A DNA stretch of 35,377 nucleotides. It comes from a candidate division WOR-3 bacterium (lineage in GTDB: Bacteria > Hydrothermota > Hydrothermia > LBFQ01 > DSFT01). The position numbers were made by a program, and so were the translations under genes. A model generated the notes under the pieces. It was not told the origin of the DNA and did no database searches. It saw nothing but the letters and a program-made list of their open reading frames with translations. Numbering within the stretch: position 1 is the stretch's first letter; every line of letters starts with the position of its first letter. Below are positions 1,900-34,486 of the stretch, piece after piece. Location of the stretch: NCBI GenBank assembly GCA_039803045.1, contig JBDRXT010000001.1, positions 1 through 35,377 on the forward strand. The letters run 5' to 3'.

Positions 1900-2205
1900 A
1901 TGTATAAGATAATAGCTATTTATAAACGTCCTGAGGATATAGAAGCTTTTGAAAAATATTATACTGAGGTTCATACCCCTCTTGTAAAGAAAATACCAGG
2001 TCTTAAGGAGTTGAGAATTACAAGAATTAAAGGTTCTCCATTTGGACAAACTGAATATTACTTAATAGCAGAAATGATTTTTGAGACAAAAGAAGATTAT
2101 AAGAAAGCTCTTTCATCAAAAGAGGCAATTGAAGCAGGTCAAGATGCTTTAAAATTTTCAAACAATAAAGTAGATATTATTTTGGGAGAAGAAACTAATT
2201 TATGA
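1900..2205 (+). CDS. EthD family reductase (TIGR02118-like)
   Basis: 101 aa. N-terminus YKRPEDIEAFEKYYTEVHTPLVKKIPGL is typical of the EthD domain. First gene of a 7-gene overlapping operon. Confidence 0.75.
   Translation: MYKIIAIYKRPEDIEAFEKYYTEVHTPLVKKIPGLKELRITRIKGSPFGQTEYYLIAEMIFETKEDYKKALSSKEAIEAGQDALKFSNNKVDIILGEETNL
2147..2158 (+). promoter_or_regulatory. perfect motif CTTTAAAATTTT inside the EthD CDS, 43 nt upstream of the queF ATG (possible internal promoter)
   Basis: Exact 12-mer including the leading C, encoding ALKFS. It could equally be a codon-driven coincidence. Confidence 0.25.
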
Positions 2206-8242: not shown

Positions 8243-8254
8243 AAAATTTTAAAG
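8243..8254 (-). promoter_or_regulatory. promoter-like motif CTTTAAAATTTT, 4 nt before the fabH ATG (8238)
   Basis: Perfect 12-mer on the minus strand; 7 nt from TAAAAT to the ATG. Confidence 0.6.
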
Positions 8255-8264
8255 GGGGATTAAG

Positions 8265-8275
8265 CTTTAAAATTT
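8265..8275 (+). promoter_or_regulatory. promoter-like motif CTTTAAAATTT, 7 nt before the ALDH ATG (8283)
   Basis: 11-mer; 9 nt from TAAAAT to the ATG. No SD in the gap. Confidence 0.55.
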
Positions 8276-8282
8276 CGCTACT

Positions 8283-9746
8283 ATGAATGAATATAAAATT
8301 TTTGTAAATGGTCAATTTGTTGATGGTAAAGGCGGAATTGGAGAAGTTATAAATCCTCATGATAATAAAACTATTGCTAAATATCATATTGCTAATTACG
8401 AAGATGTTGATTTTGCAGTAAAATCTGCAAGAGAAGGATTCGAAAAATGGAAAAGCCTTCCAATAAACAAAAGAATTAGGATATTACAAAATCTTTCAAA
8501 ATTACTATTAGAAAATTTAGATAAAATTTCAGAAGTAGAAAGTTTAAATGTGGGTAAGCCAATTACTTCTTCAAAAAGTGAAATCTTGGCAGGAATAAAT
8601 GTCTTGGATTTTTATATTGGAGCAATTAATAAAATTATGGGGGAAACAATACCAACCCTTCCAGGACTTTTTAATTATACAATTAGGGAACCAATTGGTG
8701 TTTGTGCTCTTATTGTTCCTTGGAACTATCCTTTAATGCTAACATTATGGAAGTTATCTCCAGCTCTTGCTTGTGGAAATAGTGTTATTATAAAGCCTGC
8801 AAGTTGGACACCGTTATCTGCTCTTGAACTTGCTAAGCTTTGTAAAGAAGCTGGTATTCCAGATGGTGTTGTAAACGTTATAACTGGACCTGGAAATACA
8901 ATTGGATCTTATTTAGTTCAGCATGAGGGAGTAGATAAAATTTCATTTACAGGTGAAACAAAGACAGGTTCTGAAATTATGAGATTAGCAAGTAAGACTA
9001 TAAAAAGAGTTTCATTAGAACTTGGGGGTAAATCTGCAAACATTGTTTTTGAAGATGCTGACTTAAATGATGCAATTAATGGTTCAATTTGGGCTATATA
9101 CTACAATTCAGGACAATCATGCGAGGCAAGAAGTAGAATTTTTGTTCATAAGAAAATTTATGATAAATTTCTTTCTGAATTCATTGAAAAAACTAAAAAA
9201 ATTAAGATTGGTTATCCCTTAAATAAAGAAACTCAAATGGGGCCACTTGTTTCAAAAACCCATCTGAACAATGTTCATAAACTTGTAGAGGAAGGATTGA
9301 CCCAAGGAGCAAAGTTGATTTATGGAGGTAAGAAAATTGAAGAATCTGATTTAAAGGATGGGAATTACTATTTACCAACAATATTAGAATTACAATCGTC
9401 TGATAATGTTTGCTTTAGAGAGGAAATATTTGGACCAGTTGTAATAATAATGCCATTTCAAGACGAAGAGGAAGCAATTAAGTTAGCAAATAACTCCAAA
9501 TATGGTTTAGCTGGTACAATTTGGACAAGAGATGTAAAAAGAGCAATAAGAGTTACAAATTCAATAATGGCAGGAAGCATAACTGTAAATCATCCCTTAA
9601 CTGCAATTCCGGGACTACCGTTCGGTGGTTATAAGCAATCAGGTTTTGGAAGAGAACTTTCACTTGATGCAATAGATCTTTTCACAGAGAAGAAAAGTGT
9701 GATTTATAAATACTCGGAGGAGGGGGTAAATCCATGGAAATTGTAG
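8283..9746 (+). CDS. NAD(P)+-dependent aldehyde dehydrogenase family protein
   Basis: 487 aa. ELGGKSANIVF catalytic Glu motif, NSGQSCEA catalytic Cys motif, FTGETKTG and PFGGYKQSGFGRE. Confidence 0.9.
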   Translation: MNEYKIFVNGQFVDGKGGIGEVINPHDNKTIAKYHIANYEDVDFAVKSAREGFEKWKSLPINKRIRILQNLSKLLLENLDKISEVESLNVGKPITSSKSEILAGINVLDFYIGAINKIMGETIPTLPGLFNYTIREPIGVCALIVPWNYPLMLTLWKLSPALACGNSVIIKPASWTPLSALELAKLCKEAGIPDGVVNVITGPGNTIGSYLVQHEGVDKISFTGETKTGSEIMRLASKTIKRVSLELGGKSANIVFEDADLNDAINGSIWAIYYNSGQSCEARSRIFVHKKIYDKFLSEFIEKTKKIKIGYPLNKETQMGPLVSKTHLNNVHKLVEEGLTQGAKLIYGGKKIEESDLKDGNYYLPTILELQSSDNVCFREEIFGPVVIIMPFQDEEEAIKLANNSKYGLAGTIWTRDVKRAIRVTNSIMAGSITVNHPLTAIPGLPFGGYKQSGFGRELSLDAIDLFTEKKSVIYKYSEEGVNPWKL

Positions 9747-10975
9747 AAAAGAGATTAATCTTATACTATACAGATAATCCCCCTTCAATTAATATAGATA
9801 ATTATGTTAAAAAGGGTGGTTATAAAGCAGTTAAGAAAGCTTTAGAAATGAAGCCAGAGGAAGTAATTGAAGAGGTCAAAATATCTGGTTTGAGAGGAAG
9901 AGGTGGTGCTGGATTTCCAACTGGTCAAAAGTGGTCATTTGTTCCGAATGATGGTCAAGAGCATTATCTTGTTATAAACGCTGATGAAGGGGAACCTGGA
10001 ACATTTAAAGATAGAGAAATTCTCGAAAAGGCTCCACATTTATTAATAGAGGGGGCTATAATATCGGCTTATGCTATAAGAGCAAACGAAGGATTTATAT
10101 ATTTAAGAGCAGAATATTTAGATGCTTTTAGGATTTTGAAAGAAGCTATCAATGAAGCATACAATAATAATTTACTTGGGAAAAATATTCTCGGAACTAA
10201 TTTCTCTTTTGATTTACATATATATCCGGGAGCAGGTGCCTATATATGTGGTGAAGAGACGGCATTACTAAACTCACTAGAAGGAAGAAGGGGTATTCCA
10301 AGATTAAAACCACCATTTCCTGCAATAAAAGGTTTATATTCAAAACCAACTATTGTAAATAATGTAGAAACAATAGCTAACATTCCAATTATTATAAATA
10401 ATGGAGGTAGTTGGTATAAGAAACTTGGAACAGATAAAAGTCCAGGAACAAAGATATTTACGATTAGTGGAGCAGTTAAGGAACCAAAAGTTTGTGAATT
10501 TGAACTTGGAAAAATTACATTTAGAAAACTTATAGAATATTCAGGGGGATTAAGAGAAGAAAGTAATTTAGTAGGAGTTATTCCTGGTGGTCTTTCTGCA
10601 CCAATCCTTGTAAATGATGAAATAGACATTCCTGTTACATATGAAGATTGTGCTATGAAGAATACAATGCTTGGAAGTGGAGCAGTTATAGTGATAGATG
10701 ATAAGATACCTTTAATTAAAATTATTAGAAGATCTATACAATTTTTCGCTTTTGAAAGCTGTGGATGGTGTACTCCATGTAGAGATGGACTTCCCTGGGC
10801 AACGAGAATTTTAAGAAAGATAGAACTTGGAAAAGGGACAAAGCAAGATTTAGATTTGCTGTATGAAATTACTAACTATATTAAATCAAAAACATTTTGT
10901 CCTCTTGGAGAAGGTGCTCAGTGGATATTGAGAGCATATATTGAAAAGTTTGGCGAGAGACTTCTTAATTTCTAA
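9734..10975 (+). CDS. nuoF: NuoF-like NADH-binding FMN/4Fe-4S flavoprotein (51 kDa subunit family), stand-alone
   Basis: GLRGRGGAGFPTGQKW, NADEGEPGTFKDR, ESCGWCTPCRDG and FCPLGEGA cluster ligands. Strong SD GGAGGAGGGGG (9716-9726). 13-nt overlap with the ALDH gene. Confidence 0.88.
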   Translation: MEIVEKRLILYYTDNPPSINIDNYVKKGGYKAVKKALEMKPEEVIEEVKISGLRGRGGAGFPTGQKWSFVPNDGQEHYLVINADEGEPGTFKDREILEKAPHLLIEGAIISAYAIRANEGFIYLRAEYLDAFRILKEAINEAYNNNLLGKNILGTNFSFDLHIYPGAGAYICGEETALLNSLEGRRGIPRLKPPFPAIKGLYSKPTIVNNVETIANIPIIINNGGSWYKKLGTDKSPGTKIFTISGAVKEPKVCEFELGKITFRKLIEYSGGLREESNLVGVIPGGLSAPILVNDEIDIPVTYEDCAMKNTMLGSGAVIVIDDKIPLIKIIRRSIQFFAFESCGWCTPCRDGLPWATRILRKIELGKGTKQDLDLLYEITNYIKSKTFCPLGEGAQWILRAYIEKFGERLLNF

Positions 10976-14495: not shown

Positions 14496-14497
14496 AC

Positions 14498-14515
14498 CTT
14501 AAAATTTTAAAATTT
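14498..14515 (+). promoter_or_regulatory. two overlapping motif copies (CTTAAAATTTTAAAATTT) abutting the gltX TTG start (14514)
   Basis: The first TAAAAT (14500-14505) is 8 nt from the TTG. The second copy overlaps the start codon. Confidence 0.5.
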
Positions 14516-15920
14516 GGTAAGAGTAAGATTTGCTCCCTCTCCAACAGGTGAGTTGCATGTTGGGGGGGCAAGAACTGCTTTATATAATTATCTTTTTGCT
14601 AAACATTATAATGGGAAATTCTTATTAAGGATTGAGGATACAGATAGGGAAAGAAGCAAAGAAGAATTTACATATGGGATTTTTGAAGGTTTGAAATGGC
14701 TTGGGCTATTTTGGGACGAGGATGTTTTATATCAATCAAGTAGAATTGAGATTTATAAGCAATATGCTTATAAGTTAATTTCTGAAAATAAAGCTTATTT
14801 TGATTATTATAATTCCCAAGAGTGGGAAGAAATTAAAGAAAAGTACATACCAAGAGATATTCCAATAAATGAAAAAAAGCACGTTGAAAGAAATATCATT
14901 TTAGACCCTCCAAATGGTTATAAACATGTAAAGCAAAGAAAAATAGGTGCTATTAGATTATTCGTAGAGGACGGGATATTAATTAGTTTTGAGGATAAAA
15001 TTAGAGGTAAAATTGAGATTTTAAGCAATAATTTAAATGATATAGTAATTTTGAGAAGCGATGGAACACCTACATATAACTTTGCGGTTGTGATTGACGA
15101 TCATTTTATGGATATTACACATGTTATAAGAGGTGATGACCATATTTCAAATACACCAAAACAAATATTAATATATAAAGCATTTAATTGGGAAATACCA
15201 GAATTTGCACATTTACCTATGATACTTGGAAAGGATAAGAAGAAACTTTCAAAACGTCATGGAGCATTAAGTGTACTTGAATATAAAAATATGGGAATAT
15301 TAAGTGAGGCTTTATTTAATTTTTTGGCATTACTTGGATGGTCTCCAAAACATAATAGAGAAATTATAACAAAGGAAGAAATGATAAGGATTTTTAGAAT
15401 AGAGGATGTAAATAGTTCTCCAGCTGTTTTTGATATTGATAAATTGCTTTGGATGAATTCAGAATATATAAGAATGAAACCTGAGAGCGAGATTTTGGAA
15501 CTATTGAAGGAAATGAAAAATAATTATGAAGAGCAAAAACTTTTAAATTGCATAAGACTTCTAAAAACAAGAGTAAAGACATTAAGAGAATTTTTTGAAT
15601 TTGGAGATTATTTTTTAAGTGAAGATTTTAGTGTTGATTTAGAAGCTTTCAAAAAACTAATTAATGAAAAGACATCAAACTATTTAAGCTTATTATACGA
15701 AAGATATCAAAAGATTGAAACTTGGAATAAAGAAAACTTAGAAATTACATTAAGAAACTTAGCAAATGAGCTAAATATTAAGCCTGCTGAGATTATACAT
15801 CCTTTAAGAATTATAATAAGTGGAAAAACTGTTGGACCAAGTTTATTTGAAATGCTTGAAGTTATTGGTAAAGAAACTGTTTTAAATAGGATTAATAAAG
15901 TACTTCAAAAGCATTTGTAA
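14514..15920 (+). CDS. gltX: glutamate--tRNA ligase
   Basis: VRVRFAPSPTGELHVGGARTALYN (HIGH-type motif) and KLSKRHG (KMSKS). TTG start; the previous in-frame codons are AAT preceded by a TAA stop. Confidence 0.92.
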   Translation: MVRVRFAPSPTGELHVGGARTALYNYLFAKHYNGKFLLRIEDTDRERSKEEFTYGIFEGLKWLGLFWDEDVLYQSSRIEIYKQYAYKLISENKAYFDYYNSQEWEEIKEKYIPRDIPINEKKHVERNIILDPPNGYKHVKQRKIGAIRLFVEDGILISFEDKIRGKIEILSNNLNDIVILRSDGTPTYNFAVVIDDHFMDITHVIRGDDHISNTPKQILIYKAFNWEIPEFAHLPMILGKDKKKLSKRHGALSVLEYKNMGILSEALFNFLALLGWSPKHNREIITKEEMIRIFRIEDVNSSPAVFDIDKLLWMNSEYIRMKPESEILELLKEMKNNYEEQKLLNCIRLLKTRVKTLREFFEFGDYFLSEDFSVDLEAFKKLINEKTSNYLSLLYERYQKIETWNKENLEITLRNLANELNIKPAEIIHPLRIIISGKTVGPSLFEMLEVIGKETVLNRINKVLQKHL

Positions 15921-21188: not shown

Positions 21189-21200
21189 CTTTATAATTTT
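21189..21200 (+). promoter_or_regulatory. promoter-like motif CTTTATAATTTT (TATAAT version), 4 nt (CACT) before ATG 21205
   Basis: Same layout and same CACT spacer as at 19853. Canonical TATAAT hexamer. Confidence 0.6.
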
Positions 21201-21204
21201 CACT

Positions 21205-22329
21205 ATGACTGAAAAAACTTTAAATTATATTCAGCCATTTACTGATGAGCCTATAAGGTTTATATCAAGCGAAGGAGAGCCATTATTTGATTTTACACCA
21301 GAAGATATAGGGCTTACAAATGAAGACTTAAGAACATTATATTATTATATGAAATTAACAAGAGCTTTTGATAAAAAGGGAATGTTTTTAACTCGTTCTG
21401 GAAAATCTTTATTTTATGTAGAGGTTGCGGGACAGGAAGCCTCTACAGTTTCAAGTGGTTATGCTATTCCTGAAAACGACTGGATATTTCCAGCTCATAG
21501 AGAGCATGGTGTTTATCTTGTAAGAGGTTATCCGCTTGTTGAAATGTTTGCACAATTGATGGGAAGAATGGAAATTAATAAAGCAAGACAAATGCCTGTG
21601 CACTGGGGTATGAGAAAACTTAGAATTATAACAATATCAAGTCCTGTTGGAAATCAATTACCACAAGCAGTAGGTATAGGAATGGCTATAAATTATCTAA
21701 AGAAAGATGAAGCAATAATTGTTTATGTGGGTGATGGAGGTGTTTCTGAAGGTGATTTTCATAGTGCTCTTACTATGGCTGGTGTTTTTAAAACCCCTGT
21801 TGTATTTTTTGTACAAAATAACAATTGGGCCATTTCTGTTCCTATTACGAGACAAAATCCATCAAAAAATATTGCAATTAAAGCAATTGCGTATGGTATG
21901 GAAGGATATTACGTTGATGGAAATGACTTTTTAGCAGTTTATGCAGTTACTAAATTAGCATTTGAGAAAGCCCATAACAAAGAACCGGTTTTAATTGAAG
22001 CATTAACATATAGATATGGTTCACACTCAACTGCAGATCAAGCTGATAGATATAGAGATATTAAGGAACTTGAATATTGGCAAAAAACTTGGGATCCTAT
22101 AAAAAGGGCTAGATTATATTTAAGCAGGATTGGTATTTGGAATGAAAAATGGGAAAAAGAGTTAGATGAGCAAATAGAAGAGGAATTAAATAAAGCTATT
22201 GACGAAGCAGAAAAAAGGCCAATTCCTGGACCTGAAACAACGTTTGAAGATGTTTATGCTCAAATGCCCTGGCATATAAAAGAAGAAATGGAAGAGTTAT
22301 TAAAAGAATTAAGAGAAAAGGGCGTGTAG
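21205..22329 (+). CDS. thiamine-diphosphate-dependent 2-oxoacid dehydrogenase E1 component, alpha subunit
   Basis: 374 aa. GDGGVSEGDFHSALTMAG TPP-binding motif, NNNWAIS and YRYGSHSTADQADRYR. No E1-beta/E2 follows. The stop codon lies inside tRNA-Val. Confidence 0.85.
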   Translation: MTEKTLNYIQPFTDEPIRFISSEGEPLFDFTPEDIGLTNEDLRTLYYYMKLTRAFDKKGMFLTRSGKSLFYVEVAGQEASTVSSGYAIPENDWIFPAHREHGVYLVRGYPLVEMFAQLMGRMEINKARQMPVHWGMRKLRIITISSPVGNQLPQAVGIGMAINYLKKDEAIIVYVGDGGVSEGDFHSALTMAGVFKTPVVFFVQNNNWAISVPITRQNPSKNIAIKAIAYGMEGYYVDGNDFLAVYAVTKLAFEKAHNKEPVLIEALTYRYGSHSTADQADRYRDIKELEYWQKTWDPIKRARLYLSRIGIWNEKWEKELDEQIEEELNKAIDEAEKRPIPGPETTFEDVYAQMPWHIKEEMEELLKELREKGV

Positions 22330-22393
22330 CTCAGTTGGTGAGAGCGCCATCCTCACACGATGGAGGTCCCCCGTTCAAGTCGGGGCACGCCCA
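22320..22393 (+). tRNA. tRNA-Val (anticodon CAC)
   Basis: Hand-folded cloverleaf: acceptor GGGCGTG/CACGCCC, D stem GCTC/GAGC, anticodon stem CCATC/GATGG with loop CTCACAC, T arm CCCCG-TTCAAGT-CGGGG, discriminator A. No encoded CCA. Confidence 0.93.
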
Positions 22394-22395
22394 TT

Positions 22396-23298
22396 ATGAT
22401 AAATACAAAAGAAGCTTATGAAAGAATAAAAAATTATATAAGAAAAACACCTGTGATAAAATACAAAAGTTTTTATTTTAAACTTGAAAATTTACAAAAA
22501 TCTGGTTCTTTTAAGCCAAGAGGTGCTTATAATAAAATTTTAAAAAACATTAATATCAATGGAGTAGTTTGTGCATCGAGTGGAAATCATGCTCAAGCAG
22601 TTGCAAAAGCATGCTCTGACCTAAACATTAAAAATGTAAAGATTATAGTCCCCAAAAATACCCCTGAGGTTAAAATTAATAAAATTAGATATTATGGTTA
22701 CGAACCAATTTTTTATGGAGAACATTTAAATGAAAGCTTAAATTATGCCAAGGAGTTAGCAAGAAGTGAAAATTTATTATTTGTTCATCCGTATGATGAT
22801 TTAGATATTATTGAAGGTCAAAGCACAATTGGATTAGAAATTGAAAATTATGATTTTGAATATTTGTTTATTCCAATTGGTGGAGGAGGTCTTGCTAGTG
22901 GAATTTCAATTTACATTAAGCAAAAAAAACCAAAAGTTAAAATTTATGGATTAGTTTCTGAAAATGCCCCAAGCTTTTTTTATTCTTTTAAGAGTAATAA
23001 AATTGTTAAATTTGAGCCAAAAGAAACTATTGCAGATGGTATAAGATTAAAATATCCAAGCAGCTTAACGTTTAAAATATTAAAAGAAAGATTAGAGGAT
23101 GTAATATTAGTAAAAGAGGATGAAATTAAACAAGCTATAAAGTGGGCATATAATAATCTTGGATTAATCTTAGAAGGTGCGGGAGCGATAAGTATAGCAG
23201 TTTTTTTATTTGAAAAATTAGATATTTCAAGTGGAATGTTTATATTAAGTGGTGGAAATATTAATGAAAGTCTCTTAGATAGTATTTTGAGATTATGA
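22396..23298 (+). CDS. PLP-dependent threonine/serine dehydratase family protein
   Basis: SGSFKPRGAYNK PLP-Lys motif, SSGNHAQA and GGGGLASG. Start at ATG 22396 (MINTKEAYERI), 2 nt after the tRNA-Val 3' end. The longer ORF-track N-terminus is just the tRNA read through. Confidence 0.8.
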   Translation: MINTKEAYERIKNYIRKTPVIKYKSFYFKLENLQKSGSFKPRGAYNKILKNININGVVCASSGNHAQAVAKACSDLNIKNVKIIVPKNTPEVKINKIRYYGYEPIFYGEHLNESLNYAKELARSENLLFVHPYDDLDIIEGQSTIGLEIENYDFEYLFIPIGGGGLASGISIYIKQKKPKVKIYGLVSENAPSFFYSFKSNKIVKFEPKETIADGIRLKYPSSLTFKILKERLEDVILVKEDEIKQAIKWAYNNLGLILEGAGAISIAVFLFEKLDISSGMFILSGGNINESLLDSILRL

Positions 23299-25268: not shown

Positions 25269-26317
25269 AAATATTAAGAGGTTCAATTTTAGCTTTTAGA
25301 ATTTACGATGTTGCAAGTGAAATAGACTTAAACAAGATTCAAATATCAAGAACAGAAATTTCGAAAAAATTTGGTAAAAGATTGATTTATCTTAGAAATC
25401 CACCTGCGGTCTTGTTCTTAGAAGAAATTTTACTTAAGAAATTAAATACTCAAGTATTTGCAAAGTTTTATGAGTTTGGAGCAATAAGTTTAATTCTTAA
25501 GATTATATTGGAAGATATTGAAGTTGAAAAATTATACGAGATTTTTAGGGAGGTTTTAGAAAGTGAAGAAATTGATGAAATTTGCAAGTTTTACTTAAAC
25601 AAGTTATTTGAAAAATACAAAATTTACTTTAAAAAACCATCTATATATGGAGATTATGAAGATTACACAATTGTTTATATTCAGGATTTTGAAAGAAAGT
25701 TAAAAAATTACGAAATTCTTGAGGAGATTGATATTGCAAGATTATTACTTGGTGAAAAATATAATCTAAGTGAGCAAACAAAAACAAATCTCCTGAGAAA
25801 TAAGTTTTCATATTCTGATGAAGATTTAGTAGTTTTAAGTTGGGATAGTGGATTTGTTTATGAACCCGATGGGATTATGGATGTTCCAGATTTAATCGAA
25901 TTTGCTAATGCACAGCTTTTGGAGTTAAGATATTATGACAGTTATCTTGATGGTGTTCTTGAAGAAACTTATAGTACAATAGAAAGCTTTAAGAGTTCAG
26001 TATTTGAATATAGAAAATACCAAAGAGTTTTAAAAAGATTACTATTTCTATATAATGAAATAACTGAAGCAAAAGAAATGATTTTGAATAGCTTAAAAAT
26101 TGTAGAAGATTCTTATTTTGCAAAGATTTATTCAAAAATGCTTGAGATTTTAGGAGCTTATAACTGGCAAAGAAGTATTGATAGTAAAGAAAGAACACTA
26201 TTTGAGATATACAACTTCTTAAGCACTCAAGTCTCAAATAGGAGATTAGAATTTCTTGAAATTGTAATAATTTTAGTAATAATTTTTGAAGCTTTGTTAT
26301 TTATAGTTATTAAGTGA
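25265..26317 (+). CDS. RMD1/DUF155-like protein with a C-terminal transmembrane helix
   Basis: 350 aa. Overall layout and the C-terminal RRLEFLEIVIILVIIFEAL helix resemble DUF155 (RMD1/YagE). ATGA overlap with topA. Confidence 0.45.
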   Translation: MKILRGSILAFRIYDVASEIDLNKIQISRTEISKKFGKRLIYLRNPPAVLFLEEILLKKLNTQVFAKFYEFGAISLILKIILEDIEVEKLYEIFREVLESEEIDEICKFYLNKLFEKYKIYFKKPSIYGDYEDYTIVYIQDFERKLKNYEILEEIDIARLLLGEKYNLSEQTKTNLLRNKFSYSDEDLVVLSWDSGFVYEPDGIMDVPDLIEFANAQLLELRYYDSYLDGVLEETYSTIESFKSSVFEYRKYQRVLKRLLFLYNEITEAKEMILNSLKIVEDSYFAKIYSKMLEILGAYNWQRSIDSKERTLFEIYNFLSTQVSNRRLEFLEIVIILVIIFEALLFIVIK

Positions 26318-27372
26318 GTTTTAATATAGCTTTAAAATTATTCAATATGTTATGGTTATTTTCAATTTTGCAAATTTCGGATACATCTGGGAATATCAAA
26401 ATAAAGGATCAGGATGTTGTTATATCCGGGAATGTAAATGGAGATGTTTCAATTGAGAATGGTTCACTTGTTATACTTGAAGAGGGAGAAGTAAAAGGCT
26501 CAGTTTCTGTATTTGGCGATAGTTGTAATATATTTGGTAAGATAAGAGGCAATCTTTCGGCAATCTCCAAAAGCATTGTTATAAAAGGTTCTATTTATGG
26601 TGATGTTTCTCTTATTGGACTTTTGGTGAAAATAAAAGAAAATGGTTACATAAATGGAAATGTTTCAATTGTTGCTGCGAACTTTGAAAATAAAGGAGAA
26701 ATTGAAGGTGAAAAGAGCATTATTTCTATAAATTCTCTTCCTTTTGTTTTACAAAACAACAAAATAAAGTTTGAGAGAAAATTAGACAAAAGAATAAGCA
26801 TATTAATTTTACTGTTATCAATTTTTGTTATAACATTCTTAATTTTTCTCTTTTCAAAAAGAAAGATAGATGAATTTTTTGAGAGATTTCGCCAAAATCC
26901 TCTAAAAACAATAATTACTGGATTAGCTATTCTTTTGATAATTATACCAATATTACCAATTGTCTTATTTCTTGTATTTGGGTTTGTTCTTTTGGCTTTT
27001 ATTCTAGCTCTTATTGTTGGTTCTATTGCTCTAATTATTACGATAATCGGAATTATAATTCTTCCTTTTTATCTTATAGCAATTTTGGTTGTTCTTCTAA
27101 TTATTATTTTTCTTACACTTCTTGCAATTCCTATTTATGTAATTATTGCTCTATTATTAATTGCAATTGGCCTTACTTATGGAATTGTTATAATTGGAAA
27201 ACTAATTGCAAAGAATGATTATTTAGCTTACGCTTTTGGCTTTTTTATCCTTGCAGTCTTAACTACTTTAAGCTATATTTTTCCATATATTAGTCCAATA
27301 TACTTTGTATTTTTAACACTTCTCGTAATAATGGGTCTTGGTTTAATTAAGAATAAAAAATTTAGTCTTTAA
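26314..27372 (+). CDS. bactofilin-like beta-helix domain fused to a polytopic I/L-rich membrane domain
   Basis: N-terminal repeats (ISGNVNGDVSIENGS, VKGSVSVFGDS, IFGKIRGNLSA, IKGSIYGDVSL, INGNVSIVAAN) followed by ~6 very hydrophobic helices. GTG start in a GTGA overlap. Alternative ATG at 26347 has a promoter-like motif upstream. Confidence 0.6.
   Translation: MSFNIALKLFNMLWLFSILQISDTSGNIKIKDQDVVISGNVNGDVSIENGSLVILEEGEVKGSVSVFGDSCNIFGKIRGNLSAISKSIVIKGSIYGDVSLIGLLVKIKENGYINGNVSIVAANFENKGEIEGEKSIISINSLPFVLQNNKIKFERKLDKRISILILLLSIFVITFLIFLFSKRKIDEFFERFRQNPLKTIITGLAILLIIIPILPIVLFLVFGFVLLAFILALIVGSIALIITIIGIIILPFYLIAILVVLLIIIFLTLLAIPIYVIIALLLIAIGLTYGIVIIGKLIAKNDYLAYAFGFFILAVLTTLSYIFPYISPIYFVFLTLLVIMGLGLIKNKKFSL
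26330..26340 (+). promoter_or_regulatory. one-mismatch motif CTTTAAAATTA, 6 nt before the internal ATG 26347
   Basis: Lies inside the 5' end of ORF 26314. Could mark an alternative leaderless start for the bactofilin-membrane gene. Confidence 0.3.
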
Positions 27373-30315: not shown

Positions 30316-30327
30316 AAAATTTTAAAG
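30316..30327 (-). promoter_or_regulatory. promoter-like motif CTTTAAAATTTT, 6 nt before the ATG (30309) of the zinc-ribbon pseudogene
   Basis: Perfect 12-mer on the minus strand. Confidence 0.5.
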
Positions 30328-30340
30328 TAAAGAGCAAAAC

Positions 30341-30351
30341 CTTTAAAATTT
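30341..30351 (+). promoter_or_regulatory. promoter-like motif CTTTAAAATTT, 5 nt before ATG 30357 (LVIVD protein)
   Basis: 11-mer; 7 nt from TAAAAT to the ATG. Confidence 0.6.
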
Positions 30352-31334: not shown

Positions 31335-32247
31335 ATTTTTGAAAAACTTTAAAGAATATGAAAACAAAAACATTTTTATACTATTGGGTCCAGAAGATTA
31401 TCCATTAAAATCAATTTTGGAAAAGTTTGTAAATTATGAGAAAAAAATTTTTTTTGGAGATGAAACAACAATAGATGAAATTTTAAGTTTTCTAAAATCA
31501 ACACAAATTTTTGATTCAAAGATTAAGCTTGTAATCTTAAGGGATTTTGAAAAGATGAAAAATTGGAAATTGCTCTTGAAAGAAAATATTAACAAAATTA
31601 TTTTATATTCAAGCTTAGATATATTTGAAAATAATCCAAAAAAACTTGAGAATGAAGCTAAAGAATTTATAAGAAAGAATATTTCAAATCCCCAAAACTA
31701 CGTAATCGTATTGATGAGATATTTAAATTTAGATGAAAAGAGAAAATGGCTTAGGCAAAAACTTAATAAGTTAAAATTAAATTTGAATGCTGAACAATTT
31801 GAAATTTTGTTTCAATCACTTCCTCCAGACTTAAGGGGTTCTAGTAATGAGATTGAAAAAATTTATTTAAGTGGATTAGAGAATTTTGAATTTATCATTA
31901 CAAGAAATGAAAATTCAGATATTTATGAATTTTTAAATTACTTGCAAAGTGGCAATTTAATTTCATCAATTAAACTCATTGAAAACACAAAGAAATATAT
32001 TGAAACAAACTCATACATTTTAAGAGTATTGTTAAACTTGCTATATTCTAATCTCAATTTAGATAAATATATCAAACCATCGTTTATGGCAAAGAAGTTT
32101 AATAAAATTTCTCAAAATTTTGAAAATTCAGATATTTTGGACTTAATTTTTCTATCGCTTAAAACTGACAAGGCTTATAAAACATTTCATAAACAAAATT
32201 TAGCTATACTGAAGTTATTATATTATATATTTCAGAAGGTTCATTAA
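31318..32247 (+). CDS. possible DNA polymerase III delta subunit (HolA-like)
   Basis: 309 aa. N-terminal IFILLGPEDYPL...FFGDE...IFDSKIKLVIL resembles the HolA N-domain pattern. Weak call. Confidence 0.45.
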   Translation: MLTHIEFLKNFKEYENKNIFILLGPEDYPLKSILEKFVNYEKKIFFGDETTIDEILSFLKSTQIFDSKIKLVILRDFEKMKNWKLLLKENINKIILYSSLDIFENNPKKLENEAKEFIRKNISNPQNYVIVLMRYLNLDEKRKWLRQKLNKLKLNLNAEQFEILFQSLPPDLRGSSNEIEKIYLSGLENFEFIITRNENSDIYEFLNYLQSGNLISSIKLIENTKKYIETNSYILRVLLNLLYSNLNLDKYIKPSFMAKKFNKISQNFENSDILDLIFLSLKTDKAYKTFHKQNLAILKLLYYIFQKVH

Positions 32248-32827
32248 CTGTAAAGTCAGCATTACAATTTTCACCAAATCCCCAATTTACGAATATACTT
32301 TTAACATTAGAAATTCTTGCACTTTCAACATCATAACAACTATCACCAATAATATAAACTTTCTCCCTATTTATCTTATATTTTTCAATTAAATAATCAA
32401 TCGGCTTTTTATCCGGCTTTTTAAATCCATCGTCAATCGTTATAATTTCATCAAAAAGATTATAAATATCAAATCTTCTTAAAATTTCAATTATGAAGAA
32501 CTTAGACTTATTGCTATAAATAGCAATTTTAACATTTAACTCCTCTTTAATTTTTCTTAAAGTTTCAATTACGTTTGTATAAGCTACAAGTCCCTCAAAC
32601 ATATAATTTCTATAAATATCATTAAACTCATCAATTAATTTGGCTTGGAAATCTTCCTTAAAAATTTCCCTTAAAGTGGCTTCGATACCTCCTCCAACAG
32701 ATTTTTTTACTTGCTCCCTTGTTAGAAGTTCTTTATTTTGTTTTTTTAATAGTTCATTTATTGCTAAGGTAAGACCAAGAGAAGTATCGAATAATGTTCC
32801 ATCAAAATCAAATATTAATAGTTTCAT
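32204..32827 (-). CDS. HAD-superfamily hydrolase (phosphoglycolate phosphatase/PpaX-like)
   Basis: MKLLIFDFDGTLFDT (motif I), SNK (motif II region) and IGDSCYDVESA (motif III). Start at ATG 32827, 1 nt after the tRNA-Leu 3' end. Confidence 0.8.
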   Translation of the reverse strand: MKLLIFDFDGTLFDTSLGLTLAINELLKKQNKELLTREQVKKSVGGGIEATLREIFKEDFQAKLIDEFNDIYRNYMFEGLVAYTNVIETLRKIKEELNVKIAIYSNKSKFFIIEILRRFDIYNLFDEIITIDDGFKKPDKKPIDYLIEKYKINREKVYIIGDSCYDVESARISNVKSIFVNWGFGENCNADFTVNEPSEIYNIITSV

Positions 32828-32828
32828 A

Positions 32829-32912
32829 TGCGGGAGGTGGGACTTGAACCCACACCCTTCTTCAGGACCAGATCCTAAATCTGGCGCGTCTGCCAAGTTC
32901 CGCCACTCCCGC
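32829..32912 (-). tRNA. tRNA-Leu (anticodon TAG)
   Basis: Hand-folded: acceptor GCGGGAG/CTCCCGC, anticodon stem CCAGA/TCTGG with loop TTTAGGA, long variable arm, T arm GTGGG-TTCAAGT-CCCAC, discriminator A. No encoded CCA. Confidence 0.93.
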
Positions 32913-32918
32913 AAGCCT

Positions 32919-32930
32919 AAAATTTTAAAG
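32919..32930 (-). promoter_or_regulatory. promoter-like motif CTTTAAAATTTT, 6 nt before tRNA-Leu nucleotide 1 (32912)
   Basis: Perfect 12-mer on the minus strand, directly after the M32 gene stop. Same spacing as at protein-gene start codons. Confidence 0.6.
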
Positions 32931-32933
32931 CTA

Positions 32934-34439
32934 TTAGTATATGTTTAATAAATTTTCAATTTTGTTTTCAAGGTAATTAATTAAGTACTTGGGATTTGTT
33001 TTCTCACCTGTAACAATTTGGACTAATTCTTGAGGTTTATATAAGGATCCCTTTTGATAAATATTATCTTTTAACCAATTGTAAATCGTTTTAAAATCAC
33101 TTTTTCTAACAAGTTCATAAATATTTCCAAGTTCATTGTTTATTTTATGAAAAAATTGTGCAGCATTTAAATTACCAAGAGTATAAGTTGGAAAATACCC
33201 CATTTCAGAAGACCAGTGAACATCTTGTAAAATACCTTCTTTATCACTTCTTGGTCTAAATCCAAAAAGTTTTTCAAACTTATCATTCCAAGCATCTTTC
33301 AAATCGTCAACCTCTATTTTCTTATTTATCACATCTCTCTCAAGTTCAAATCTCAAAATAATATGTAAGTTATATGTTAGCTCGTCAGATTCAACTCTTA
33401 TATATGAAGGTCTTATTTCATTTATTGCTAAATAAAAATGCTCTAACTTAACATTTTCAAATTGAGGGAAAAACTTTTTCAAGCTATCATAAAATACTTC
33501 CCAGAAAGCTAAGCTTCTACCTATGAAATTTTCCCAAAATCTTGACTGAGATTCATGTATACCTAATGAAACGCTTTCACCAACAGGTGTTCCAAAGTGA
33601 TCTTCGTTAAGTCCCATTTCATAAAATGCATGACCCATTTCGTGAAGTGTTCCAAATATACTTGAACTTATATTATCTTCATAAAATCTTGTAGTAATTC
33701 TGACATCATTTGGCAATATTCTTGTAGCAAAAGGATGTGCTGTTTCATCTAATCTACCTTTATTAAAATCATATCCAATTTTTTCAAGTAAAAACTTACA
33801 AAATTCTTTTTGTTTTTCCTTATCAAAATTTCCCTTCAGTACATAACTCTTAAAATCTTTATTTTCATTTTTTATCCTATTTAACAGTCTAAGTGTTTCA
33901 CTTTTTAGTTGTTGAAAAATATTTGCTATTTCTTGGGCTGTCATTTCTGGTTCATACTTATCAATAAGAGCATCGTAAGGTTCGTTTTTATATCCAAGTA
34001 TTTGAGCCTCTTCTCTTAAAATTTCAACAATTTCTTTTAAATATGGTTTAAATAATTCAAAATTGTCCTTTTCTCTTGCTTCCTTCCAAACATGATATGC
34101 TAAGGTTGAAGTTTTTATATGTCTTATTAATAATTCTTTTGGTATTTTCTTTTGTTCTTTATATTTCTTTTCCCACCAATATAAATTCGCTTTTTGAATT
34201 TCATCTAATTCACCCTGTTTTGCTTTTTCTATTAACTCTCCAACGTAATCTTTTGTCCATTCTTCATATATATACTCTCCAATTATGGCATGAGCCTCAG
34301 CTCTATGTTTGAAACCGTCCTTTGGCATATAAGTTCTTTCATCCCATCCTGATATTGCAATAAGTGATGAGATATAAGTTAATTTTTTTGATATTTTCAC
34401 CAACTCTTTATATGATTCTTGGGGAGTTAATATTGTCAT
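32934..34439 (-). CDS. carboxypeptidase M32 (thermostable carboxypeptidase Taq family)
   Basis: 501 aa. HEMGHAFYE zinc motif, HESQSRFWEN and DELTYNLHIILRFE are family signatures. Confidence 0.92.
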   Translation of the reverse strand: MTILTPQESYKELVKISKKLTYISSLIAISGWDERTYMPKDGFKHRAEAHAIIGEYIYEEWTKDYVGELIEKAKQGELDEIQKANLYWWEKKYKEQKKIPKELLIRHIKTSTLAYHVWKEAREKDNFELFKPYLKEIVEILREEAQILGYKNEPYDALIDKYEPEMTAQEIANIFQQLKSETLRLLNRIKNENKDFKSYVLKGNFDKEKQKEFCKFLLEKIGYDFNKGRLDETAHPFATRILPNDVRITTRFYEDNISSSIFGTLHEMGHAFYEMGLNEDHFGTPVGESVSLGIHESQSRFWENFIGRSLAFWEVFYDSLKKFFPQFENVKLEHFYLAINEIRPSYIRVESDELTYNLHIILRFELERDVINKKIEVDDLKDAWNDKFEKLFGFRPRSDKEGILQDVHWSSEMGYFPTYTLGNLNAAQFFHKINNELGNIYELVRKSDFKTIYNWLKDNIYQKGSLYKPQELVQIVTGEKTNPKYLINYLENKIENLLNIY

Positions 34440-34443
34440 TTTG

Positions 34444-34454
34444 AAATTTTAAAG
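34444..34454 (-). promoter_or_regulatory. promoter-like motif CTTTAAAATTT, 4 nt before the M32 carboxypeptidase ATG (34439)
   Basis: 11-mer on the minus strand; 6 nt from TAAAAT to the ATG. Confidence 0.6.
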
Positions 34455-34460
34455 GATACA

Positions 34461-34486
34461 TTTATAATTTAGAGCTTTAAAATTTT
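34461..34486 (+). promoter_or_regulatory. tandem motifs TTTATAATTT (34461-34470) and CTTTAAAATTTT (34475-34486) upstream of accC
   Basis: The only case in the window with a real leader: 23 nt from the motif end to ATG 34510. Confidence 0.5.

Follow-up and report, generated by a model that had tools for sequence, protein, structure and literature searches.

The stretch of DNA analysed here (35,377 nt, hereafter the window), which constitutes a complete 35-kb contig (JBDRXT010000001.1) of a candidate division WOR-3 bacterium, carries a tRNA-Leu(TAG) gene separated from the start codon of a HAD hydrolase gene by a single nucleotide. With the promoter-like motif preceding them, both genes would form a compact -10 promoter/tRNA-Leu(TAG)/HAD unit, the transcript of which would be cut by RNase P-type and RNase Z-type activities before translation of the released mRNA in leaderless mode, a reading that we consider rather probable. 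Its extension to the lineage is put forward with slightly less than even confidence: WOR-3 Hydrothermia may use tRNAs as removable 5' ends of messages, RNase P/Z-type excision routinely making leaderless 5'-monophosphate mRNAs, some of them starting with UUG, CUG or AUU. A preliminary description of the locus had put forward the 5' side, with an essentially leaderless precursor offering a minimal substrate or none to RNase P; the packing of coding sequences (CDSs) against tRNA 3' ends, systematic and conserved across the genomes compared, appears to be the more unusual side.

On the minus strand, the locus reads ATATAC TAA TAG CTTTAAAATTTT AGGCTT GCGGGAG...CTCCCGC A T ATG AAA CTA TTA ATA TTT GAT TTT GAT GGA, and the layout initially described (M32 stop, TAG, motif, AGGCTT, tRNA-Leu, T, ATG) is exact according to the sequence, Rfam and ARAGORN. 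The upstream gene, found in the open reading frame (ORF) list, encodes an M32 (Taq-type) carboxypeptidase (32934..34439, minus strand; Pfam Peptidase_M32, E = 1.6e-174). Its TAA stop (32934-32936) is followed by TAG (32931-32933), right behind which begins the putative promoter motif CTTTAAAATTTT of tRNA-Leu (32919..32930, minus strand). The -10 hexamer of this promoter is likely TAAAAT, at 32927-32922. The AGGCTT spacer (32913..32918, minus strand) leads from the motif to the tRNA and ends with a U(-1) able to pair with A73. The tRNA-Leu(TAG) (32829..32912, minus strand) is an 84-nt class II tRNA with discriminator A73 and no encoded CCA. Rfam RF00005 places it at 32829-32912 on the minus strand with 56.3 bits, against a gathering score of 29, and ARAGORN calls a tRNA-Leu with anticodon TAG at 32828-32913, i.e., with one extra flanking T per side. 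Both placements being reconciled, G1 stands at 32912, A73 at 32829, the spacer T at 32828 and the ATG at 32827.

The single T at 32828 (minus strand) is the expected RNase Z-type cleavage point and would also constitute a 1-nt mRNA leader. The gene that follows (32204..32827, minus strand) codes for a HAD-IA hydrolase of 207 aa, phosphoglycolate phosphatase/PpaX-like according to NCBIfam and Pfam and matched by 207-aa homologues, with the N-terminus MKLLIFDFDGTLFDTSLGLTLAINELLK and a catalytic DxDGT motif from residue 7. The ATG at 32827 is regarded as its real start because the Pfam domains align from residue 1: residue 1 is aligned to position 1 of the Hydrolase profile, and residue 4 to position 1 of HAD_2. 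The CDS has neither a Shine-Dalgarno (SD) sequence nor a promoter of its own, and its 3' end overlaps a convergent holA-like gene. Read by eye, the GC-rich 3' half of tRNA-Leu shows neither an SD nor a TAnnnT element, and expression of the HAD gene would depend on the tRNA promoter.

The window has a G+C content of 26-32% (about 29% overall) and encodes bacterial TopA, SppA, IF3 and aminoacyl-tRNA synthetases, as well as a weak holA match. The M32 protein shares 73-88% identity with proteins from metagenome-assembled genomes from hot springs (candidate division WOR-3 / Candidatus Hydrothermia). The loci of relatives, designated by L numbers, were reached through HAD and threonine dehydratase homologues, and further tRNAs came from a metagenome scan with the pattern motif + N{50,80} + T-loop, which gave at least 120 matches, most by chance, with about 8 loci from the lineage; in total, about 300 kb of lineage DNA were examined. 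HAD homologues with 61-88% identity were traced to contigs of four other WOR-3/Hydrothermia genomes (L015-L020). In all four, the HAD gene comes immediately after tRNA-Leu(TAG) and the motif-tRNA-Leu-HAD order is kept. Alignment shows a conserved motif, then a variable spacer of 6-8 nt always ending in T, then a conserved tRNA-Leu with compensatory paired changes in the anticodon and T stems. The spacer between tRNA and start is T in the window, TT in L015-17 and TAAAT in L018, whereas L019/L020 display T + CTG at the homologous start. The gene on the far side of the tRNA varies (M32, a divergent thiolase, a transposase with an HHH protein, or a Por_Secre_tail protein), and contig comparison via M32 homologues found no M32 gene adjacent to tRNA-Leu in relatives. 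The promoter-tRNA-Leu-HAD unit thus seems to be selected as a whole, since motif, tRNA and junction are kept while upstream neighbours differ. In all the genomes compared, gene order is interrupted precisely on the upstream side of tRNA-Leu(TAG) (L015-L020 ~9650-9915 versus window 32931-34439); in L018, a DDE transposase occupies this breakpoint, and the holA-like and LVIVD-repeat genes downstream are conserved.

Such junctions are not limited to tRNA-Leu. Both tRNAs of the window abut a CDS, with T + ATG for the HAD gene and TT + ATG for a threonine dehydratase gene, and, across the lineage, an ORF of at least 100 aa begins 0-5 nt past the discriminator in 7 of 12 tRNA families (18 of 27 instances). 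The controls consisted of tRNAs in unrelated, non-lineage loci among the matches listed in the metagenome scan, of which 1 out of 79 was abutted (Fisher p = 7e-7 by family). Besides tRNA-Leu(TAG), with T, TT or TAAAT + ATG or T + CTG before the HAD gene, tRNA-Val(CAC) precedes a threonine dehydratase gene with TT + ATG in three genomes (window, L141, L143) and with 0 nt + TTG in L144. The other junctions link tRNA-Val(GAC) to an MGDG synthase (TT + TTG, three genomes), tRNA-Val(TAC) to a GT2 glycosyltransferase (TTT + ATT), tRNA-Pro(CGG) to a helicase (0 nt + TTG), tRNA-Ser(GGA) to a NifU/IscU-like protein (CTTTT + ATG) and tRNA-Ser(CGA) to an OmpH-like protein (CATT + ATG). The nucleotide after the discriminator is T in five of the seven junction families and C in both tRNA-Ser junctions, and CCA is not encoded in any tRNA examined from the lineage.

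The reading frames truly seem to start at the tRNA boundary because, in the six junction proteins other than the helicase N-terminal fragment, Pfam domains begin at residues 1-18. In-frame canonical starts upstream of the junction genes are absent or not conserved. A sequence scan of the tRNA-CDS junctions gave no motif and no sigma-70-like or terminator-like site, and the GC-rich 3' halves of the tRNAs, read by eye, display no SD or TAnnnT element. Two possibilities were rejected here: an SD within the tRNA, as the sole GGAGG belongs to the T stem of tRNA-Val(GAC) and is 22 nt away from the start, and an internal promoter in the tRNA, as no TAnnnT is present. Two junctions in L144 have a 0-nt gap, from which both a tRNA and an intact mRNA could therefore be obtained only by a cut exactly after the discriminator. 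Behind the non-abutted tRNAs stands a convergent gene (Gln-TTG, Leu-CAG), a gene preceded by a motif copy of its own (Arg-CCG) or an ORF that is uncertain or remote (Gln-CTG; Ser-CGA in L089). A distant dehydratase homologue (L145, 54% identity, 53% G+C) has no tRNA upstream, which suggests that the abutment is confined to the low-G+C Hydrothermia clade.

In the mechanism proposed, RNA polymerase would start about 4-7 nt past the motif and produce a precursor with about 0-4 nt ahead of G1, part of the tRNA-Leu precursors arriving by M32 read-through in this genome. The tRNA and the CDS would be co-transcribed and the leader trimmed by an RNase P-type 5' endonuclease. An RNase Z-type cut right after A73 would then free a CCA-less tRNA, to which CCA would be added, and the same cut would yield a 5'-monophosphate mRNA starting with U-AUG, to be translated in the leaderless mode already used by promoter-proximal genes. 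The start-site position, the co-transcription, the enzymes and the leaderless translation are inferred from the sequences. In the Bacillus subtilis paradigm, RNase Z cleaves CCA-less precursors directly after the discriminator, and a U following the discriminator is a known RNase Z context; the junctions described above, without encoded CCA and mostly with T next to the discriminator, share these features. The initial proposal that trimming after the discriminator would free a HAD mRNA with a 1-nt leader is upheld in so far as the junction is conserved, with 1, 2 or 5 nt in relatives, and tRNA excision probably creates leaderless mRNAs with leaders of 0-5 nt.

The leaderless mode is suggested by the motif itself. 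The 11-mer CTTTAAAATTT occurs in 14 copies in the window against 0.80 expected, a number reached in none of 100 shuffles, and related loci contain 2.6-9 copies per 10 kb. One copy serves as the candidate promoter of the M32 carboxypeptidase gene (34444..34454, minus strand), 4 nt before its ATG at 34439. Among 113 distinct exact copies, 71 have an ORF of 60 aa or more beginning within 15 nt downstream. With the spacing d counted from the end of the 11-mer, these start codons stand at d=4 (18 cases), 5 (15), 6 (8), 7 (15) and 8 (6), i.e., 62 of 71 at d=4-8, which corresponds to 7-11 nt from the last base of TAAAAT. They comprise 62 ATG, 7 TTG and 2 GTG, and an SD is usually absent. The motif is found before first genes of operons, before both genes of divergent pairs, before nine tRNA families and before some SD-leadered genes, the latter carrying AAGGAGG about 15 nt downstream of the motif. 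As it also precedes tRNAs and SD-leadered genes, it is considered a transcription signal rather than a translation signal, and it behaves as a putative lineage-wide -10-type promoter with no visible -35: the alignment of motif copies from the window and relatives displays no conservation at the -35 position. TAAAAT agrees with TAnnnT, the -10 consensus that leaderless genes are reported to have in Deinococcus (PMC4007540). If TAAAAT is the -10 box, transcription initiated at the canonical 7 nt beyond it would begin at d=4, on the A of the ATG at the modal distance, so that motif-proximal genes are probably leaderless. Roughly 15 of the 37 window genes (about 40%) are of this type, and operon-internal genes carry GGAGG. 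The GluRS gene (window 14497-14516) has a TTG start at 14514, 6 nt past a CCTTAAAATTT motif, with a Pfam match from residue 1, and would be a leaderless-type gene with a non-AUG start.

Applied to tRNA-Leu, the same measure places G1 at d=7, the distance of 15 of the 71 start codons. The equality initially noted between motif-to-tRNA and motif-to-ATG distances therefore stands as regards the range (d=4-8) and fails as regards the mode, d=7 being above the modal 4-5. From the motif-to-start-codon distances, transcription would start within AGGCTT, and a primary transcript with about 0-4 nt ahead of G1 is plausible. A fixed distance from motif to tRNA throughout the lineage, set beforehand as a test of the near-leaderless proposal, is not what the relatives display, since the spacing ranges from 6 to 27 nt: 6 nt for Gln-CTG, 6-8 for Leu-TAG, 7 for Leu-CAG, 8 for Ser-CGA, 9 or 13 for Val-GAC, 11 or 27 for Gln-TTG, 13 for Val-TAC, 14 for Ser-GGA and 20 for Pro-CGG. 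No tRNA lies at d<=5, versus 36 of 71 start codons (by family, Fisher p = 0.003 and Mann-Whitney p = 1.7e-4). With none at the modal d=4-5, the tRNAs apparently retain a short leader of at least a few nucleotides.

Short leaders of this kind are ordinary in Escherichia coli, in which tRNAs commonly carry 3-7 nt ahead of position 1 and nevertheless remain RNase P substrates, as for trpT (3), pheU/V (3-4), cysT (4) and proK/L (5-7) (PMC7049720), so that a near-leaderless tRNA is less exotic for bacteria than had been suggested at first. The 5' feature is that of a short-leader bacterial tRNA beside its promoter, not new in kind. Moreover, no terminator-like site lies between M32 and tRNA-Leu, where just 3 nt separate the M32 stop from the motif. 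As no terminator intervenes, read-through from M32 would give long precursors with a 1.5-kb leader, and such precursors likely exist in this genome. Long leaders reading through from M32, named at the outset among the observations that would speak against a leaderless tRNA, are thus to be expected and count against that part of the proposal. What remains of the essentially leaderless precursor is a motif close enough for a leader of about 0-4 nt, without the freedom from RNase P.

Two tRNAs embedded in operons bear directly on the 5' enzyme. In the window, tRNA-Val(CAC) (22320..22393, plus strand; 74 nt; ARAGORN; Rfam 66.9 bits) has no motif. It follows the pyruvate dehydrogenase (PDH) E1-alpha CDS (21205..22329, plus strand), the last 10 nt of which, including the TAG stop, are nt 1-10 of the tRNA, the stop being nt 8-10. 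The sole promoter candidate upstream is the motif variant CTTTATAATTT (21189..21199, plus strand), 5 nt before the PDH E1-alpha ATG. The threonine/serine dehydratase CDS (22396..23298, plus strand), which has no SD, starts 2 nt (TT) after the discriminator. The 10-nt overlap is conserved in L141, L143 and L144, i.e., in four genomes with the window. The whole-window Rfam scan at the gathering threshold missed tRNA-Val(CAC), and the 66.9 bits were obtained with the region scanned alone. Similarly, tRNA-Arg(CCG) in L141 has no motif, and a 243-aa CDS ends at its nt 21-23, an overlap of 23 nt (L141 560-1342, minus strand). Since both tRNAs are promoterless and overlap upstream CDSs, a 5' endonuclease is required and the organism must, on this sequence evidence, possess an RNase P-type activity. 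The wider idea that RNase P is dispensable is therefore not supported, as these tRNAs need 5' release from long precursors. For Aquifex, an RNase P activity was deduced along the same lines, from tRNA genes lying within clusters or operons (PMC10941002). Regular expressions for rnpB P4 (GGAAAGTCC), the RnpA RNR motif and the L34 N-terminus gave no relevant match in 298 kb of lineage DNA, a sample too small to be informative. The WOR-3 papers examined do not deal with rnpA, RNase Z or promoters. A protein of the MBL fold in L143 was considered as RNase Z and rejected.

Several points weigh against excision of tRNAs as a source of leaderless mRNAs. In relatives, TTG, CTG or ATT takes the place of the homologous start codon in a number of genes that abut tRNAs, and leaderless translation in E. 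coli strongly prefers AUG. Actinobacterial leaderless mRNAs also use GUG and UUG (PMC3848588), and the non-AUG starts are less damaging because GluRS is motif-proximal with a TTG start. In addition, some of the tRNAs sampled had been picked up with a search pattern containing the motif, no gene for RNase P, RNase Z or a CCA-adding enzyme was seen in about 300 kb of lineage DNA (uninformative either way), and the transcription start is placed only to within about 3 nt, G1 (a purine after a pyrimidine) being itself a possible start. The non-AUG junction starts are located at L019/L020 9989, L144 10001 and 317, L019 18800 and L116 1056, as well as in L037 and L093. One public annotation of the L019 HAD gene begins at an ATT four codons further in.

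The junctions can be read in two other ways. It is quite unlikely that the tRNA and the mRNA are not both recovered, the tRNA being kept as a structured 5' end with an internal SD-less start, or each transcript giving one product, either the tRNA, trimmed by 3' exonucleases, or the mRNA. CDS 5' ends that are AU-rich and unstructured beside a GC-rich fold would suit such a start, TTG, CTG and ATT are odd for classical leaderless initiation, and no RNase Z gene was seen in the lineage DNA. However, a folded tRNA 0-2 nt upstream should block 30S loading, the confinement of the spacing to 0-5 nt in seven independent junctions is what one precise cut predicts, and the absence of CCA in all junction tRNAs, mostly followed by U, is an RNase Z context. 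It is hardly credible that the HAD gene is translated through the tRNA sequence, from TTG 32914, as a 236-aa protein. The frame is indeed open from 32914, this TTG stands 5 nt past the motif, and some database homologues have 233 or 216 aa. Against this, a spacer of 1, 2 or 5 nt among relatives does not preserve the reading frame across the tRNA, and in L019 no canonical start codon is available in frame upstream. The 207-aa form already includes the HAD fold from its first residue, and the region is a genuine tRNA with compensatory stem changes. Owing to the non-conserved frame, a read-through ORF across the tRNA was rejected. Mechanical ORFs (window 32204-32914, minus strand; 22360-23298, plus strand) and database homologues of 233, 216 and 312 aa run into tRNA genes, and such tRNA-extended CDS calls probably result from open frames in GC-rich tRNA and would be artefacts of annotation. 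Excision of the tRNA by a precise 3' cut remains the preferred reading of the junction.

As for the 5' end, two alternatives dispense with RNase P to different extents. A truly leaderless tRNA-Leu(TAG), starting at G1, keeping its 5'-triphosphate and having no need for RNase P (the enzyme still being present for other tRNAs), is unlikely. A purine G1 after T fits the usual pyrimidine(-1)/purine(+1) start rule, d=7 is shared with 15 of 71 start codons, and relatives keep d=6-8; yet no lineage tRNA occupies the d=4-5 favoured by start codons, and M32 read-through would still yield long precursors. With sigma-70 promoters, transcription starts within a usual window relative to the -10 hexamer, and d=7 puts G1 10 nt past TAAAAT, at the edge of this window. 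A situation like that of Nanoarchaeum equitans, in which RNase P is wholly absent and all tRNAs are transcribed from position 1, is very improbable. It would agree with the close promoter at tRNA-Leu and a few other tRNAs (d=6-9) and with the missing rnpA, rpmH and rnpB signatures in about 300 kb, a sample far too small to count. It conflicts with the promoterless tRNA-Val(CAC) and tRNA-Arg(CCG) overlapping upstream CDSs, with the other tRNAs located 11-27 nt from the motif, with the first nucleotides of tRNA-Gln (U) and tRNA-Pro (C), on which transcription starts poorly, and with the Aquifex precedent, in which embedded tRNAs were taken to imply RNase P activity (PMC10941002). Loss of RNase P in this lineage is not indicated. 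A bacterial tRNA escaping RNase P would be remarkable; what the evidence indicates instead is a short-leader tRNA of the ordinary type in an organism still dependent on 5' processing.

Other occurrences of the motif were recorded. It is often repeated back to back where genes diverge, or takes the form of the perfect palindrome CTTTAAAATTTTAAAG, which is the motif on both strands (window 8244-8275, 30317-30351 and 34444-34485; L015 9884-9899; L019, L078 and L079), and this palindrome also stands just ahead of several tRNAs. A copy at window 2147-2157 (plus strand) lies inside the 3' end of an EthD-domain CDS, about 45 nt before a QueF-like gene (2202), and is kept in the relative L093 (minus strand, ~1370); it is possibly an internal promoter giving a leadered transcript. 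A variant, CTTTAAAATTA, occurs at 26330, followed by 6 nt and then ATG 26347 (window 26314-26350), and the bactofilin-like ORF listed from GTG 26314 may have its real start at 26347.

If tRNA cuts make mRNA 5' ends in these bacteria, punctuation by tRNAs would not be confined to organelles, a second, post-transcriptional route to leaderless mRNAs would exist in bacteria, and tRNA maturation would be coupled to mRNA expression. The 5' cut at tRNA-Val would strip the stop codon from the upstream PDH E1-alpha message, and one at tRNA-Arg(CCG) would do the same to the message of the 243-aa CDS. Gene annotation is also concerned, as gene callers extend CDSs into tRNAs (236-, 233- and 312-aa calls) or choose wrong starts, such as the ATT four codons in. 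A literature search for bacterial tRNA-punctuated leaderless mRNAs returned full-text matches that were all mitochondrial, which suggests, without proving it, that tRNA punctuation is undescribed in free-living bacteria.

Compared with known systems, the locus shares with the short-leader tRNAs of E. coli (trpT, pheU/V, cysT, proK/L) a promoter close to the tRNA, with leaders of 3-7 nt in that species. With the mixed operons of E. coli (secG-leuU; thrU-tyrU-glyT-thrT-tufB), it shares the co-transcription, predicted here, of tRNAs with protein genes. However, CCA is encoded in the E. coli tRNAs, and the gene that follows them has a separate leader with an SD, tufB starting about 100 nt after thrT, whereas the WOR-3 CDSs start 0-5 nt past the discriminator. 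N. equitans also has a promoter element at a short, roughly constant distance, comparable to the 6-8 nt before tRNA-Leu(TAG) in five genomes, but the WOR-3 element is a bacterial -10 box instead of an archaeal TATA box. In addition, the WOR-3 spacing extends over 6-27 nt and some tRNAs are promoterless and overlap upstream genes; judged from these sequences, the N. equitans pattern, with a promoter at a fixed distance before every tRNA, does not apply. Leaderless mRNAs of Deinococcus-Thermus and Actinobacteria similarly display a -10 TAnnnT a few nt before an SD-less start, mostly ATG with some TTG and GTG (PMC4007540, PMC3848588). By comparison, the WOR-3 motif is longer (11-12 nt) and varies far less, often taking the form of the palindrome CTTTAAAATTTTAAAG, the host is a low-G+C (about 28-29%) WOR-3 thermophile, and a second route to leaderless mRNA, tRNA excision, is proposed.

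The 3' side resembles the tRNA punctuation of animal mitochondrial DNA, in which RNase P and RNase Z/ELAC2 cut out the tRNAs and thereby free leaderless mRNAs; the excision proposed here would be its bacterial counterpart, combined with leaderless translation of the bacterial kind. In both cases, tRNAs abut CDSs by 0-5 nt, no SD or promoter is present at the junction, some junctions have non-AUG starts, and processing is predicted to give a CCA-less tRNA plus an mRNA that begins with, or right beside, its start codon. Abutment in WOR-3 takes the form of 3' gaps of 0-5 nt in 7 of 12 families and 5' overlaps of 10 and 23 nt in two families. Unlike mitochondria, WOR-3 are free-living bacteria with many promoters and ordinary SD-led genes, and only some of their tRNAs are involved. 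Finally, whereas mitochondrial stops are completed by polyadenylation, the WOR-3 CDSs located upstream keep their whole stops inside the tRNA.

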